Origin: a virus
Lineage: Duplodnaviria > Caudoviricetes
Strand: one strand, 5' to 3'
Virus record (IMG/VR): IMGVR_UViG_3300036975_000082
Span: 1 to 44,385 of that record
Length of the DNA stretch: 44,385 nt
The position numbers and the translations under genes were made by a program. Under the pieces are notes generated by a model that did not search any database, was not told the origin of the DNA, and worked only from the letters and a program-made list of their open reading frames with translations. This document shows, piece by piece, positions 5,740-44,385 of this stretch; positions within the stretch are counted from its first letter, which is position 1, and the number at the start of each line of letters is the position of its first letter.

Positions 5740-6354
5740 ATGAGCGAGGAGAAAACGTGGCACCGGTGTTGTCTGTGTGAGCACGGGCCGGATGGCGGAC
5801 TCGTGAACGCATGCGACAGCTGCAGCGATGTTTATAGCGAATGGAAACCCAACAAGGTCATGCTCGAATGGCACGAGGATATGCTGGCCAAGCATCCGCA
5901 TTTGGCGGCGCAGCACTGCAGACTTGCCTTGAAGGATCGGCCATCATTCAAGGAGATCTACATGCGCATGGCGCACGAGCTCTCCCAGCGATCCACATGC
6001 CGGCGTCTGCAGGTTGGGTGTGTGATCACATCCACGGACTACCGCAAGGTACTGTCCGTGGGCTACAACGGCAATGCGTCCGGCCTGGTTAATGATTGCG
6101 ATAGTGACGAGGTGGGCAACTGCGGATGCCTGCACGCCGAGGAGAATGCGGTAATCAATTGCGACTCGCCACGATACGTGGAGAAGGTGGTATTCTGTAC
6201 GCACCTTCCGTGCAGGATGTGCGCTAAGCGAATCATCAATCTCGGTGGGGTGCGGGTCGTGTACTACGACTTGCCTTACAGGAACACAGAGAGCAAGGAC
6301 ATGCTACTTTCGGCCGCCATTCAATGCTGCAGTTTTCAGATCCAAAAACCTTGA
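5740..6354 (+). CDS. dCMP deaminase (ComEB/DCTD family) with a Cys-rich N-terminal extension
   Basis: RSTC..LQVGCVI, GYNG, HAEENA and PCRMC zinc motifs. Confidence 0.93.
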   Translation: MSEEKTWHRCCLCEHGPDGGLVNACDSCSDVYSEWKPNKVMLEWHEDMLAKHPHLAAQHCRLALKDRPSFKEIYMRMAHELSQRSTCRRLQVGCVITSTDYRKVLSVGYNGNASGLVNDCDSDEVGNCGCLHAEENAVINCDSPRYVEKVVFCTHLPCRMCAKRIINLGGVRVVYYDLPYRNTESKDMLLSAAIQCCSFQIQKP

Positions 6355-6479: not shown

Positions 6480-6773
6480 GTGAGCATGTTGCGGCAACGG
6501 CGGCCTGGATCATTCGATTTGGACACTGACAAAGGTTTTTGCAGATCCGTGCACGTGGTTGTGTGGGCAACAGCTTTTGCACTGTTCTCTATAGTGTGGG
6601 TGTTCGTGCTGGGGTTTGCTTTTGTCATGACGGTTGTGCATGATCCGGAATTGTCTTGCATGAAGGCGGCCATTGATGCCATGGGTGGTTGCGGTTGGTA
6701 CTTGTTGATGGTTGTTGCTGTAGTTGTGCTTCCGCCTGCGTTTGTCGCTTCCATAGTGGCTGCCAGCAACTGA
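6480..6773 (+). CDS. Two-TM membrane protein
   Basis: Two long hydrophobic segments in 97 aa. Confidence 0.6.
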   Translation: MSMLRQRRPGSFDLDTDKGFCRSVHVVVWATAFALFSIVWVFVLGFAFVMTVVHDPELSCMKAAIDAMGGCGWYLLMVVAVVVLPPAFVASIVAASN

Positions 6774-6781
6774 GGCATTGA

Positions 6782-7000
6782 ATGGCGGACAGGTGGGCAC
6801 GCGCCGAGCTCTGCGCCAGGGCGCATAGAATTCTATACGTAAAGGATGGCGTTGCGCACACCTGGTGCGGATTGCCTGCCGATGGCATTCCGGAATATCG
6901 GATCAGGATCACGAGCACAACCAATCGAATCGATCAATGTCATCGGTGCAATGCCGTTGCCGATTCATCTGTAGGCATCGAATTGCTAGAGGAAGAGTGA
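6782..7000 (+). CDS. Hypothetical protein with possible zinc ligands (H...CG...CxxC)
   Basis: GAGG SD; TGATG coupling to the next gene. Confidence 0.6.
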   Translation: MADRWARAELCARAHRILYVKDGVAHTWCGLPADGIPEYRIRITSTTNRIDQCHRCNAVADSSVGIELLEEE

Positions 7001-7356
7001 TGCAGATTGTCGAGGCCAAGGCGGACTGGCTCGTGCAAGGCCTCAACAAGGATATGCAAACCAACGCCCTGATCAATGCCATGTGCGCCCGAATGCATCG
7101 CGACGGACAGCCGATGCCGGTGGTAGTCGACGACGCCACATGCAGGGTGTTGGCTGGCGCGTCGGCAGTCGAGGCGGCCGTGCTTCTCGAGTGGGATGAC
7201 GAGGGCAGGATGCTGCAGGTGGCACTGCATGACGGATCCCCGTTGTGCTCGGAGATCGTGTGTTGGTGGCGGCGGTTTGAGCAGCCTGTCACGGCGCCGG
7301 ACTTTCCGGAGGGAGCGCTTGAAGGCGCTATCCGTGGGATTGAGGCAGGTGCCTGA
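7000..7356 (+). CDS. ParB/Srx N-terminal-like protein (degenerate)
   Basis: QPMPVVVDD...RVLAG...EAA pattern; the usual GxxR is replaced by GASA; located before the terminase genes. Confidence 0.5.
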   Translation: MQIVEAKADWLVQGLNKDMQTNALINAMCARMHRDGQPMPVVVDDATCRVLAGASAVEAAVLLEWDDEGRMLQVALHDGSPLCSEIVCWWRRFEQPVTAPDFPEGALEGAIRGIEAGA

Positions 7357-35740: not shown

Positions 35741-35955
35741 TGCGATGCTCTTTTCTTTCGGTTTCTTTTCAGGCGCTCGAGCAGCATGGCGCCACGGGCG
35801 GCCGATCGGAGCGTGCTGCGGTATGCTTCCTCTGCATCGGACGTGTCGCCGGCGCCGAGCTCCGTGCGCATGACTTCGACCTGCTCTCGCATGCGTCGCA
35901 GGCCGAGCACGTCATCCCTTTGACCCTCGCCTTGAGGCCTGCCCCTGTATCTCAT
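35737..35955 (-). CDS. Hypothetical basic protein (72 aa)
   Basis: ATGA coupling at both ends. Confidence 0.6.
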   Translation of the reverse strand: MRYRGRPQGEGQRDDVLGLRRMREQVEVMRTELGAGDTSDAEEAYRSTLRSAARGAMLLERLKRNRKKRASQ

Positions 35956-36161
35956 GACAGCTCGGGCTCCATGACGATGGTACCATCGTCCATGATGCCG
36001 ACCGACAGGGTGGTGCCGCACGGGCAGTTGCGCAGCTCTAGCTCGGCCGGCTCGCCGGGCTCCCTCATCTCCACCGGCATGCGACCGATCAGCGGCAGCT
36101 CCTGCCACTCTTGCAGGCTGTAACCAGTGCCGCAGCATGTGCATTGCTTGGTTTGTGTCAC
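35952..36161 (-). CDS. Small zinc-ribbon protein
   Basis: GGAG SD and GTG at 36161; KQCTCCG...EW..L..IG...LELRNCPCGTTL. Confidence 0.7.
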   Translation of the reverse strand: MTQTKQCTCCGTGYSLQEWQELPLIGRMPVEMREPGEPAELELRNCPCGTTLSVGIMDDGTIVMEPELS

Positions 36162-36181
36162 CGTCGTCTCCTGCGATAGCG

Positions 36182-36221
36182 CTGCCATACCCTCCGGCCC
36201 GGCGGCGGGAGGGCATGGCAG
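36182..36221 (-). other. Intergenic 14-bp stem-loop
   Basis: CUGCCAUGCCCUCC pairs with GGAGGGUAUGGCAG (one G-U pair); no U-tract. Confidence 0.7.
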
Positions 36222-36226
36222 ACGGG

Positions 36227-36493
36227 CTATTGCTCATAGAGGTACGGATTGACATCTCGACCGTCGTAGGCGTACCCACTAATGATGTACACACAACGCG
36301 AATCGCTCCAATACAGTTTGGCGCCGGTCTTGAGTATGGCAATCGGACCATCTGTCGGTTCGAGGTCAACATCCTCTGAGCCATGATAATGCTTGACTGC
36401 CTCGACCACGAGGTCACCAAGATTGGGCACCTGCAACTCCGACAACAACTTACCCCAGCAGGTGTTGTGCGTGTTGAGCTCTACCGTCTTCAT
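36227..36493 (-). CDS. Hypothetical protein (88 aa)
   Basis: GAGGAG SD immediately downstream of the hammerhead. Confidence 0.72.
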   Translation of the reverse strand: MKTVELNTHNTCWGKLLSELQVPNLGDLVVEAVKHYHGSEDVDLEPTDGPIAILKTGAKLYWSDSRCVYIISGYAYDGRDVNPYLYEQ

Positions 36494-36509
36494 CGTCTTC
36501 TCCTCTAAG

Positions 36510-36573
36510 GGGCTGACTCGTCAGTGCAGGGTGCCCAGCTCCCGCAGACCGCGCAGTTGCGCGGTTTCGTCGG
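36510..36573 (-). ncRNA. Type II hammerhead ribozyme
   Basis: GAC-GAAA-CCGCGC(AACU)GCGCGG-UC^-UGCGGG(AGCUGGGCAC)CCUGCA-CUGACGA-GUC: all core nucleotides and three stems present, entirely intergenic. Confidence 0.9.
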
Positions 36574-36575
36574 TG

Positions 36576-36956
36576 CTACTCGGCGCAATCGCGATCTGGC
36601 CCGACATCCGACTCGCCCCGCACCCATGCTTGACACGCGATCGTCGCTTCTTGCACCGTCGCGTACATTCTGTGGTAGTCATCGTCATGCCAGGCCCACC
36701 ACTGCTCCTCGAGAGCCGTCTGGGCCTGCGCGTCGGCGATGGCTTGGGCGCAGAGTTCACGCGCCCTCACGTCGGCATCCACATGCTCGGGTACGACGCC
36801 TAGGGTCTCGAGCTCGGCGCGGTGCTCGCCCACCTCGGCTATGTAGGTCAGGCCGCTGGCGAGGGCTACGTCGCACAATGCCACTTGCAGGGTGTCGCCT
36901 GCCTGGGCGGCTTCGGATCGCAGGGTCTCGATCTGCTCGTCGGTAATCTCTCTCAT
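36576..36956 (-). CDS. Hypothetical early protein (alternative leaderless start at 36989)
   Basis: AGGAG SD; MREITDEQIETLRSEAAQAGD... Confidence 0.72.
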   Translation of the reverse strand: MREITDEQIETLRSEAAQAGDTLQVALCDVALASGLTYIAEVGEHRAELETLGVVPEHVDADVRARELCAQAIADAQAQTALEEQWWAWHDDDYHRMYATVQEATIACQAWVRGESDVGPDRDCAE

Positions 36957-36995
36957 CGTCTTCATCTCCTGTGTTTGTGTCGTCGTCATGATCCT

Positions 36996-37024
36996 AGTAT
37001 CGGCGATTTTGTCGCAGATATCAA
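36996..37024 (-). promoter_or_regulatory. Sigma70-like promoter
   Basis: TTGATA-17 nt (TCTGCGACAAAATCGCC)-GATACT; the spacer holds an imperfect palindrome. Confidence 0.65.
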
Positions 37025-40657: not shown

Positions 40658-41382
40658 TGCCCGCCGGAGAACTCCTCGGGCCTGTAGGGCCGCCATTTAT
40701 GAGCCGTGACCTGTCCTCCCTTTTTTGTGCCGGCAGGCGCCGTGTCCAGGCGCACCAACTTGCCCATCAGCGGATTGGCCGGGCTGATCGCCAGCTCTGC
40801 CGCGGCAACGGCGCTCTGCTCATTCGGGAAGGCTTGTCTGAGCGCATCCTTGTCATAGGGATCGATGCCATTGCATGCACCAATGAACCCCTTGAGGCGT
40901 CCCTTCCACCCTTCCCAGGAGCAGGATTGGTACCAATTCCAGGACGTACCGGCTTGCACGGCGGGATTGCCGGACCAGACGATCTTGAAGTCCACGATCA
41001 CGGAGTTGCTTTGCCTGCCTTGATTGAAAAAGACACGCTCTATCTCCGCTACGTATGTCGCCACGGTCAACGGCAGGTAGTTGCCTGTCTGCGATGGATC
41101 CTCGCTGCCCATGCCGTCGAATATGCTCCCACCGCCACCGGCAAAGGGCTGGCCGTACTGCGACGGGTAGCCGAGCTGCGCCGGTGGCTGCGACGGGTAG
41201 CCGGGCTGCGCCGGCGGCTGCGTCGGATAGCCGGGCTGCGCCGGCGGCTGCGTCGGGTAGCCGGGCTGCGCCGGCGGCTGCGTCGGGTAGCCGGGCTGCG
41301 CCGGCGGCTGCGTCGGGTAGCCGGGCTGCGCCGGCGGCTGCGTCGGATAGCCGGGTTGATTGGGATACATAGGATTGTGCAT
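40654..41382 (-). CDS. Putative ssDNA-binding protein with an N-terminal PGYP/Q repeat region
   Basis: Between helicase and polymerase genes; beta-rich aromatic C-terminal domain; low-complexity N-terminus. Confidence 0.6.
   Translation of the reverse strand: MHNPMYPNQPGYPTQPPAQPGYPTQPPAQPGYPTQPPAQPGYPTQPPAQPGYPTQPPAQPGYPSQPPAQLGYPSQYGQPFAGGGGSIFDGMGSEDPSQTGNYLPLTVATYVAEIERVFFNQGRQSNSVIVDFKIVWSGNPAVQAGTSWNWYQSCSWEGWKGRLKGFIGACNGIDPYDKDALRQAFPNEQSAVAAAELAISPANPLMGKLVRLDTAPAGTKKGGQVTAHKWRPYRPEEFSGGQ
41158..41355. repeat. 30-bp coding tandem repeat (AQPGYPTQPP, about 6.5 copies)
   Basis: Unit GGTAGCCGGGCTGCGCCGGCGGCTGCGTCG. Confidence 0.95.
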
Positions 41383-43254: not shown

Positions 43255-44385
43255 CTAAAACGGGACGTCGTCGTCCATCCTACCGCGTAGGTACTGTGCA
43301 GCTGCCTGATATCCCTGCGAGACGAGCTCCAGGATCTTGATTGCGTCTGGAATCGACAGCGGCAACGCAGGCGCATTGGCCGGAGGCGGCCCAGGAGGCT
43401 GTGGAGGCTGCACAGCCGGCTGCTGCGGAGGCGGAGGCGCCTGCGGCAGCTGCATGGGCATCTGCGTTGGAGGCTGCTGGGGAAAACCCTGCGTGATCGG
43501 CACCTGATGGTAGACAGGTTGTGCTGCCGGAGGACCGCCGTATTGGCCCTGTGCCGACATCGCTGCCTGCGTCTGTTGCTGCACCGGAGGTGGCTGCTGC
43601 ACCGGAGGTGGCTGCTGCACCGGAGGTGGCTGCTGCACCGGCACCGGCCCGACAGACTCCGGCGGGTTGACAGGTTGTGCCGGGAGCGACTGACCGGTGG
43701 CCTGCAGGTGCGCTGCCACCTTCTCCTGCAACGACATTTCACGTGGTTTGTTCTCTGTCATGATCAAACCAAACCTTTCTTGCGGCGTCATGCCGCATCC
43801 ATTGCCCATATACGGACATCCACCATACTGGTTGCATGCGTCACGCGGAGGCATGTCCTCCGGACGCACCCTCTGCTCTATCGCGAGCACCATCCTTTGC
43901 GCCACCTCGCACACCAGGCCAAACCTGTCGGCCACATGCTCGAGGCTCATCTCGAAGTCCACCGGCCTGGCAGGCCTGGGCTTGCTTTTTGTGCGCAGGC
44001 CGTACAACCATCTGCAATGCACCTTCAACGAGGAAAACTTTTGCAGTGCAAATGCCGCATAGATCACAGCCTGCACGTCCTCCAACAGATCATCCCTGGA
44101 TTTCATCCATCGGAAGTTGCTGCCTGTGATCTTGGTGTCCTCTATCCACGGTATGCCGTCAGGCTGCAGCTGCAGGCAGTCTATCGCACCTCGCAACGCG
44201 AATGGCTGCCGAATGGGCAGCCATTCAAACGGAAACTCGGGCAGCGCCAAACCAGGGGAGGGCAGCCACTTGATCAACGTCTGCGCCACACGGCCCGTCG
44301 GCGTGTCCGGCGGCGCAATGCCTGCTTTAAGCCACTTGTCCTGATGCTTGTGCACCTTTTTGCCGAAATCTCTAGGCCCATCTTC
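43255..44385 (-). CDS. PD-(D/E)XK exonuclease (Cas4/RecB-like) with a P/Q-rich C-terminal tail; 5'-truncated
   Basis: RGAID...IEDTK, Q..IYA and C..YGGCPY...C; the frame stays open past 44385 (EDGPRDFGKKVH...). Confidence 0.85.
   Translation of the reverse strand, partial: EDGPRDFGKKVHKHQDKWLKAGIAPPDTPTGRVAQTLIKWLPSPGLALPEFPFEWLPIRQPFALRGAIDCLQLQPDGIPWIEDTKITGSNFRWMKSRDDLLEDVQAVIYAAFALQKFSSLKVHCRWLYGLRTKSKPRPARPVDFEMSLEHVADRFGLVCEVAQRMVLAIEQRVRPEDMPPRDACNQYGGCPYMGNGCGMTPQERFGLIMTENKPREMSLQEKVAAHLQATGQSLPAQPVNPPESVGPVPVQQPPPVQQPPPVQQPPPVQQQTQAAMSAQGQYGGPPAAQPVYHQVPITQGFPQQPPTQMPMQLPQAPPPPQQPAVQPPQPPGPPPANAPALPLSIPDAIKILELVSQGYQAAAQYLRGRMDDDVPF
43577..43641. repeat. 18-bp coding repeat (PPPVQQ, about 3.5 copies)
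   Basis: TGCTGCACCGGAGGTGGC units. Confidence 0.9.

Follow-up and report, generated by a model that had tools for sequence, protein, structure and literature searches.

Pseudoknotted type II hammerhead ribozymes were described in bacteria and prophages in 2011, and the relevant sections of that report already give the type, the pseudoknot, the placement between prophage genes of changing identity and the hypothesis that such motifs process mRNA (Perreault 2011, PMC3088659). The same sections record in vitro cleavage for 14 of 18 hammerheads that conform to the consensus, the other 4 being inactive. They also record that cleavage followed prediction in three tandem bacterial arrangements, one of them in E. 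coli too, and that fast cleavage needs the pseudoknot. A role in stability or translation is repeated as an open idea in the excerpts used here of Weinberg 2019 (PMC6765202), where the cellular role is called largely elusive. In the literature that we searched, where few subscription papers fell in scope, we found no large post-2011 survey of hammerheads between phage genes.

The RNase III hairpin sites in the early region of phage T7 cut one early transcript into pieces; they need a host enzyme, and the long hairpin described below is a candidate site only. The HHphage motif of the haloviruses HF1 and HF2, as excerpted from PMC3088659, is like ours a single hammerhead just before an early-region start codon, and a 5’ end was mapped there at most 3 nt from the cut; it is a core variant, found in archaeal viruses before a helicase, whereas in the motif described here the core is canonical and an 88-aa ORF follows. 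RiboJ, a synthetic element of plant satellite RNA origin placed behind a promoter, self-cleaves just upstream of a ribosome binding site to leave a fixed, hairpin-bearing 5’ end, as we predict for our motif; in E. coli, protein rose 2- to 10-fold with it, and transcript about 2-fold (Clifton et al. 2018, PMC6206723, in part). Our motif is natural and intercistronic, and its likeness to RiboJ is one of working, not of membership. The PeSL elements of T4, in the part of the description drawn on here, are short and conserved, and lie between genes in early regions that vary (Comeau et al. 2014, PMC4122927), a description that also suits the modules of this locus. A PeSL is a terminator-promoter composite, whereas our scan found no promoter-like or terminator-like site inside the hammerhead or the long-hairpin module, and the locus is not a PeSL.

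The stretch of DNA analysed here, the window, comprises 44,385 bases and is a whole IMG/VR virus record of an uncultured phage, 97% complete. A Logan contig run covers it unbroken with 0 differing letters, although that run is possibly itself the source of the window. Among 3 sequencing runs no RNA run is listed as a holder, which carries no information on expression, and the parts that lack cover in runs X2 and X3 do not count as evidence either. Two profile scans, of 36 and 18 proteins, place terminase, portal, capsid, tape measure and baseplate genes on the plus strand, and primase, helicase, family A polymerase, nucleotide phosphatase and RuvC-like genes on the minus strand; no integrase was found among the proteins scanned. 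The best terminase match is 39% to Aeromonas phage 56, polymerase matches reach 27% or less, and the homologues of the amidase are unnamed. The ribozyme sits among small genes of the minus strand that follow two small helix-turn-helix-like genes, one above the Pfam cut-off and one weak, and the promoter at 37024-36996. Gene content together with promoters suggests that this region is expressed early. Elsewhere in the window we noted short tandem repeats with a CCCACGC-containing unit at the left end (1-700), proline/glutamine-rich repeats in two replication-region ORFs (41200-41370 and 43300-43650), and a strong plus-strand hairpin at 912-973 that came to notice through a weak Rfam match. The features of the ribozyme locus are as follows.

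36996-37024, minus strand: sigma-70-like promoter, TTGATA, 17 nt, GATACT (9 of 12 in a consensus scan)
36576-36989, minus strand: upstream ORF, 126 aa from the ATG at 36956 or 137 aa from the in-frame ATG at 36989
36510-36571, minus strand: type II hammerhead ribozyme motif, pseudoknotted subclass (from sequence, Rfam RF02276 at 47.3 bits, and covariation in 27 like motifs)
36571-36569 with 36517-36515, minus strand: stem II, GAC with GUC, 3 pairs, open
36568-36565, minus strand: core GAAA, from sequence
36564-36559 with 36554-36549, minus strand: stem III, 6 pairs round a 4-nt loop, plus the core A-U pair
36549-36547, minus strand: cleavage triplet GUC, in which U36548 and C36547 precede the predicted cut
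36546-36547, minus strand: predicted cleavage site, 3’ of C36547, from the position in the Rfam alignment and established chemistry
36546-36541 with 36530-36525, minus strand: stem I, 6 pairs, one of them G-U, with a 10-nt loop
36533-36536, minus strand: putative pseudoknot strand GGGC in loop I, complementary to 36513-36510, in the register of 19 of 27 long-loop motifs
36524-36518, minus strand: core CUGACGA, from sequence
36510-36513, minus strand: putative pseudoknot strand GCCC in the 3’ tail, from sequence and covariation
36500-36505, minus strand: Shine-Dalgarno sequence GAGGAG, 6 nt ahead of the ATG at 36493
36227-36493, minus strand: downstream ORF, 88 aa
36173-36233, minus strand: long hairpin with internal loop(s) and no U-tract, in the next gap, between stop and Shine-Dalgarno sequence

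We compared the whole window with 4227 Rfam families using cmscan. Positions 36572-36507 of the minus strand matched RF02276 (Hammerhead_II) at 47.3 bits (E 9.6e-7), over model positions 1-66 of 66 and against a gathering cut-off of 37 bits. This was the only match above its gathering score in the 44,385 bases, the next best having an E-value of 0.026, and RF02276 had no match in any of 14 control genomes. The motif has a 3-bp open stem II, a 7-bp stem III including the core A-U pair, a 6-bp stem I and a 10-nt loop I. The conserved core (CUGANGA, GAAA and an NUH triplet) is present, loops close stems I and III while stem II is open, and loop I can pair with the 3’ tail past stem II (GGGC with GCCC). 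At the level of sequence, then, the motif has every feature of RF02276 that can be tested. The first-pass annotation, which had seen a complete type II hammerhead here, thus placed the core, the three stems, the GUC site and the two pseudoknot strands correctly, as it did the stop codon of 36576-36956 just upstream and the GAGGAG just downstream; only 4 nt separate that stop codon (36578-36576) from stem II.

Core, open stem II and looped stems I and III are all common to the RF02276 hammerheads of bacteria and prophages as set out in the sections used of PMC3088659, and so are the four-pair pseudoknot of loop I with the 3’ tail, the position between small phage genes and the proposed processing of a long transcript. 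The clustered hammerheads of Perreault 2011 flank single prophage genes, whereas Rfam, a stem-checked scan and a pattern scan each find a single copy in the window; none of the three found two or more ribozymes bracketing genes. Neither other credible ribozymes or Rfam RNAs nor any tRNA were found in the window. Against the 2011 motifs, the window’s is further set apart by lying in a phage without an integrase among the proteins scanned, by its absence from close relatives and by sharing its kind of slot with a long hairpin.

To place the motif within its class, we searched viral and bacterial sequence for like arrangements. A generic type II pattern matched 138 viral stretches in 16 of the collection’s 64 parts, which corresponds to about 500 over the whole, and 162 distinct motifs with all stems, the window’s included, were extracted from 154 loci. 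Layout could be counted for the 153 motifs with enough flank. An ORF of at least 30 codons ended no more than 12 nt before the GAAA in 125 (random positions, 11%), an ORF started 8-45 nt past the core in 131 (random positions, 31%), and 110 had both and thus the order stop codon, ribozyme, Shine-Dalgarno sequence, ATG; as the motifs are mutually related and were chosen by pattern, these counts describe the class and are not independent trials. From the cut to the ATG the median distance is 50 nt, compared to 53 in the window.

The stem I hairpin divides the motifs into two subclasses, short (16-19 nt, n = 135) and long (21-27 nt, n = 27), and the window’s motif is long. The loop has its complement at tail positions 5-8 in 19 of the 27 long motifs, against a shuffled mean of 3.2 and a maximum of 10 in 5000, and in 1 of the 135 short ones; leaving out the window and four motifs that came from a tail-biased scan, the long-class figure is 15 of 22. 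In a MAFFT alignment of the 27 long-loop motifs, 82.4% of the cells are paired (shuffled, 58.2%), each of the 4 pseudoknot and 6 stem I pairs shows double changes, and 64.8% of the pseudoknot cells pair. Relative to the window, the two pseudoknot strands are swapped in L032, L051 and G010. The stems and pseudoknot therefore covary across this pattern-scan set, as would be expected of the loop-I pseudoknot that had been proposed from complementarity at this one locus.

In bacterial genomes the long-loop pattern matched 14 stretches, 4 of which pass a strict 4-nt pseudoknot test; by eye, most others pair with one G-U. Nine of the 14 lie in Mailhella or other Desulfovibrionaceae assemblies (L176-L178, L182-L187). 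Several phages carry arrays of short-loop hammerheads, one per gap (L002/L004, L005, L006-L009, L008, L018-L021, L027, L028 and L037). Many array motifs fall below the Rfam cut-off or are missed, so RF02276 appears to undercount the short-loop subclass. At L015 (about 1188-996, minus strand) two hammerheads lie some 55 nt apart, with an apparent six-codon ORF that has its own Shine-Dalgarno sequence between them. Pattern matches in G001 (one) and G011 (two) were discounted, as their stems are absent by eye and controls match equally often.

Both genes that flank the ribozyme lack a match in PHROG, Pfam or Atlas. The upstream ORF has homologues in L010 (77%) and L011 (85%), and a metagenome scan for it returned 2 weak partial matches among 600 candidates. 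The downstream ORF has five homologues at 57-79%, named hypothetical or unnamed, and an 83% homologue in L016. The promoter at 37.0 kb is conserved and duplicated in the close relative L161 (5258-5286, with a second copy near 6240-6270); the promoter scan as a whole gave 6 sites, compared to 2.3 in shuffles. The ATG at 36989 lies 6 nt past the -10 box and is thus a possible leaderless start for the upstream ORF. That exact spacing recurs at two of the three minus-strand promoter-like sites (36989 and 37580), and ATGs are similarly spaced in relatives (L161 near 4517, 4788, 5292 and 6277; L010 near 2533). Several of these ATGs have no Shine-Dalgarno sequence, and they are likely leaderless starts, which may hint at the host group. 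The first-pass annotation had taken the upstream gene as the first early gene of the transcript. The scan gave two further promoter-like sites upstream on that strand and, in the interval from them to the ribozyme, no terminator-like site; the gene would therefore be first in only one of several possible transcripts.

Taken together, these data lead us to a reading that we hold to be probably, though by no means certainly, correct: a canonical pseudoknotted type II hammerhead likely cuts an early mRNA between two small genes and is a dispensable, swappable module, absent or at other gaps in related phages. The closest genomes, G008 and G009, match at 89% in the polymerase, at 92% in the terminase (G009) and at 71-84% DNA identity round the site; their alignments are identical, and we therefore count them as one lineage. 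The hammerhead pattern is found in neither genome, and the close relative L161 has no Rfam match. Behind the same promoter this lineage has different ORFs, the long hairpin in two copies and the duplicated promoter. In three phages that have early cassettes but no terminase in common with the window, the upstream gene (L010 and L011) or the downstream gene (L016) has no ribozyme beside it. Because the closest genomes are without it and both neighbours occur without it, the ribozyme appears from these comparisons to be tied to neither gene and to be dispensable in this gap. An uncoupling specific to this pair of genes, as first proposed, therefore finds no support among the relatives, in which the genes behind the 37.0-kb promoter vary; processing of a polycistronic phage mRNA is the part of that proposal that remains the best explanation. 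G001 and G002 also have no Rfam hammerhead. We had considered G001, G002 and G006 as close relatives and set them aside, as none of 5 records has a terminase match and only early cassettes are common.

Relatives also point to how the motif may come and go. L010 tracks the window through the stop codon and the first GACGA, then resumes after the ribozyme’s second GACGA (12 of 14 letters). This is likely a deletion scar, the ribozyme interior having been lost between two 5-base repeats, although it is one case, spotted post hoc, and 11 of 6369 9-mers of the locus match equally well. In L161, the ORF at 6607-7030 has a start that by eye resembles the window’s upstream gene and an end that matches the gene at 35952-36188; it is likely a fusion, spanning what in the window is the ribozyme-bearing region. 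One contig of run X2 joins 36580 to 36199 via 253 other letters, a junction of little weight with 27 letters on one side.

Such patchiness would also be expected if the ribozyme, though it cuts, were a passenger of near-neutral effect, whose conserved, Shine-Dalgarno-bearing stretch spreads among phages as a convenient crossover point between unrelated gene cassettes and whose RNA processing matters little to the phage. The likely scar in L010 would fit that account, as would the arrays of L002 and L005, in which, over the 2 locus pairs compared, the hammerhead segments are about 81% alike and the genes between them have no blastn match; in T4, PeSL elements act as exchange points, as stated in part of PMC4122927. 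However, stems and pseudoknot covary rather than stay identical, which points to selection on the RNA fold, and the core is perfect here. A single copy in the window also means that there is no within-genome recombination through the ribozyme. We consider a mere passenger unlikely, and continue with the reading in which the motif processes the early mRNA.

The next gap in the window holds a different element. The hairpin at 36233-36173, with about 24 predicted pairs, has a z-score of -5.25, and 0 of 200 shuffles are as stable. Its pattern recurs in 7 viral stretches, 6 of which belong to phages with this early region in common, each having an ORF that ends just before it and a start codon that follows. 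Copies lie at L011 3818-3881, L016 3255-3331 and 3490-3530, and L175 590-655, and the element is repeated within genomes (L161 5900-5965 and 6525-6590; L172, two copies 298 nt apart). Covariation is thin, with double changes in 2 of 24 pairs over 6 sequences, and the family has no Rfam match. Neither the hammerhead nor the hairpin has a terminator-like site in our scan for intrinsic terminators, and a purine-rich Shine-Dalgarno sequence follows both. RNase III substrates are double helices of about two turns, in many cases with an internal loop. The hairpin as predicted has this geometry, which is a necessary feature of such a site and not a sufficient one. We regard it as a candidate RNase III-type site, stabilising element or cassette boundary. 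A separate strong hairpin with a z-score of -5.82, at L016 2421-2467, precedes a U-rich run directly ahead of the downstream gene’s homologue in L016.

The two kinds of element meet in G010, which holds a second pseudoknotted type II hammerhead at L175 1078-1135 (G010:C1:1107-1165; 40.2 bits). Its stem II is GGC with GCC and its pseudoknot strands are swapped, both of which are compensating changes. A 50-aa gene lies behind this hammerhead in G010 and behind a long hairpin in G006, with 49 of 50 residues identical. Either element can thus lead the same 50-aa gene. Two extra ORFs lie between the G010 hairpin and the G010 hammerhead; insertion is therefore also possible, and the comparison does not amount to a clean one-for-one exchange. 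A broader idea, which we offer tentatively and think possible rather than probable, is that the hammerhead can be exchanged for a long hairpin that depends on a protein, both being plug-in units of stop codon, RNA end-maker and Shine-Dalgarno sequence, which would be gained or lost as about 60 bases, as at the L010 scar, protect the 5’ end of the next gene and form seams for swaps of early genes. If this were true, the near-identical genes of G006 and G010 would amount to a natural experiment on the role of bacterial and phage hammerheads.

By analogy with other hammerhead cores, whose cleavage yields a 2’,3’-cyclic phosphate and a 5’-OH (PMC6765202, in part), cutting after C36547 would split the early mRNA in two. 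The upstream piece would end in the stem III hairpin with the cyclic phosphate, and the downstream piece would carry its 5’-OH on the base that opens the stem I hairpin, 53 nt ahead of the ATG. In a predicted fold of 36546-36490, this 3’ product opens directly with the 6-bp stem I hairpin at the head of its 53-nt leader. Both new ends would be capped by hairpins, and its topology suggests that type II is the sole permutation to leave a closed hairpin on both products. The downstream genes would receive a fixed, structured leader, independent of the sequence upstream, which would most likely steady or raise their expression, as RiboJ does in E. coli; the 36233-36173 hairpin may serve a similar end, via a host nuclease or as a stabiliser.

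It had further been suggested that the 5’-OH would resist RNase E-type decay. Published evidence lies on both sides: a ribozyme 5’-OH slows end-dependent decay in E. coli, according to one sentence of a preprint (bioRxiv 10.1101/2020.07.22.216051), whereas cleavage of glmS is followed by degradation, as related in part of PMC6765202. The sign of any 5’-OH effect on the downstream RNA would depend on the host. RNase J1 attacks 5’-OH ends in Bacillus. The cut could accordingly be an entry point for decay, as after glmS, with the downstream early genes dampened or timed off. The predicted 3’ product, however, opens with a hairpin at its very end and keeps a strong Shine-Dalgarno sequence, and ribozyme insulators raise expression in E. 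coli (PMC6206723, in part). We judge a destabilising cut improbable, and prefer the reading in which cleavage gives the downstream genes a stable leader.

Thermodynamic folding does not by itself mark the motif out (z -0.70; 41 of 200 shuffles are equally stable). In ViennaRNA, which has no pseudoknot term, the hammerhead fold misses the minimum by 3.3 kcal/mol in 36575-36505 and by 6.8 kcal/mol in 36590-36490, and stem I has a probability of 0.06 or less in 4 of 5 sequence contexts. Only in the nascent 55-nt piece 36575-36521 is the hammerhead the minimum-energy fold. Since the hammerhead is so rarely the best fold in these contexts, the competing folds count against the cleavage reading. For the gap between the hammerhead and the best fold, the window ranks 19th of 26 long-loop motifs, in a class that ranges from 0 to 9.8. 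The 22 nt upstream interfere no more than shuffled versions, 58% of 200 shuffles being as bad or worse. We had considered an ‘anti-ribozyme’ switch selected in this upstream flank, which the shuffled flanks leave unsupported, and a masking of the Shine-Dalgarno sequence by the pseudoknot tail, which would be just a 3-pair helix with a 3-nt loop and too weak for argument. That pairing of the stem I strands with the tail and with coding sequence upstream makes the copy slow or inactive, either as a decaying import or as one that folds only with the help of a ribosome or some other factor, would suit the competing folds that win by 3-7 kcal/mol in four contexts, the low rank of the window and the G-U pair in stem I, but the energy model leaves out the pseudoknot, the gap is inside the class range, the upstream flank bears no sign of a selected switch and the core is unchanged, and we think it improbable.

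The motif is thus one clean example of a class that was described in 2011 and is common in viral metagenomes, and the functional idea first attached to it is the published hypothesis. What this analysis adds is evidence of gain, of loss and of slot-sharing with a long hairpin. The locus bears a little on what hammerheads do in cells, through close relatives that lack the motif, through what is likely the scar of a deletion, and through a gene that in near-identical form has one element or the other in front. From these natural junctions, the gain, loss and substitution of a ribozyme could be rebuilt.
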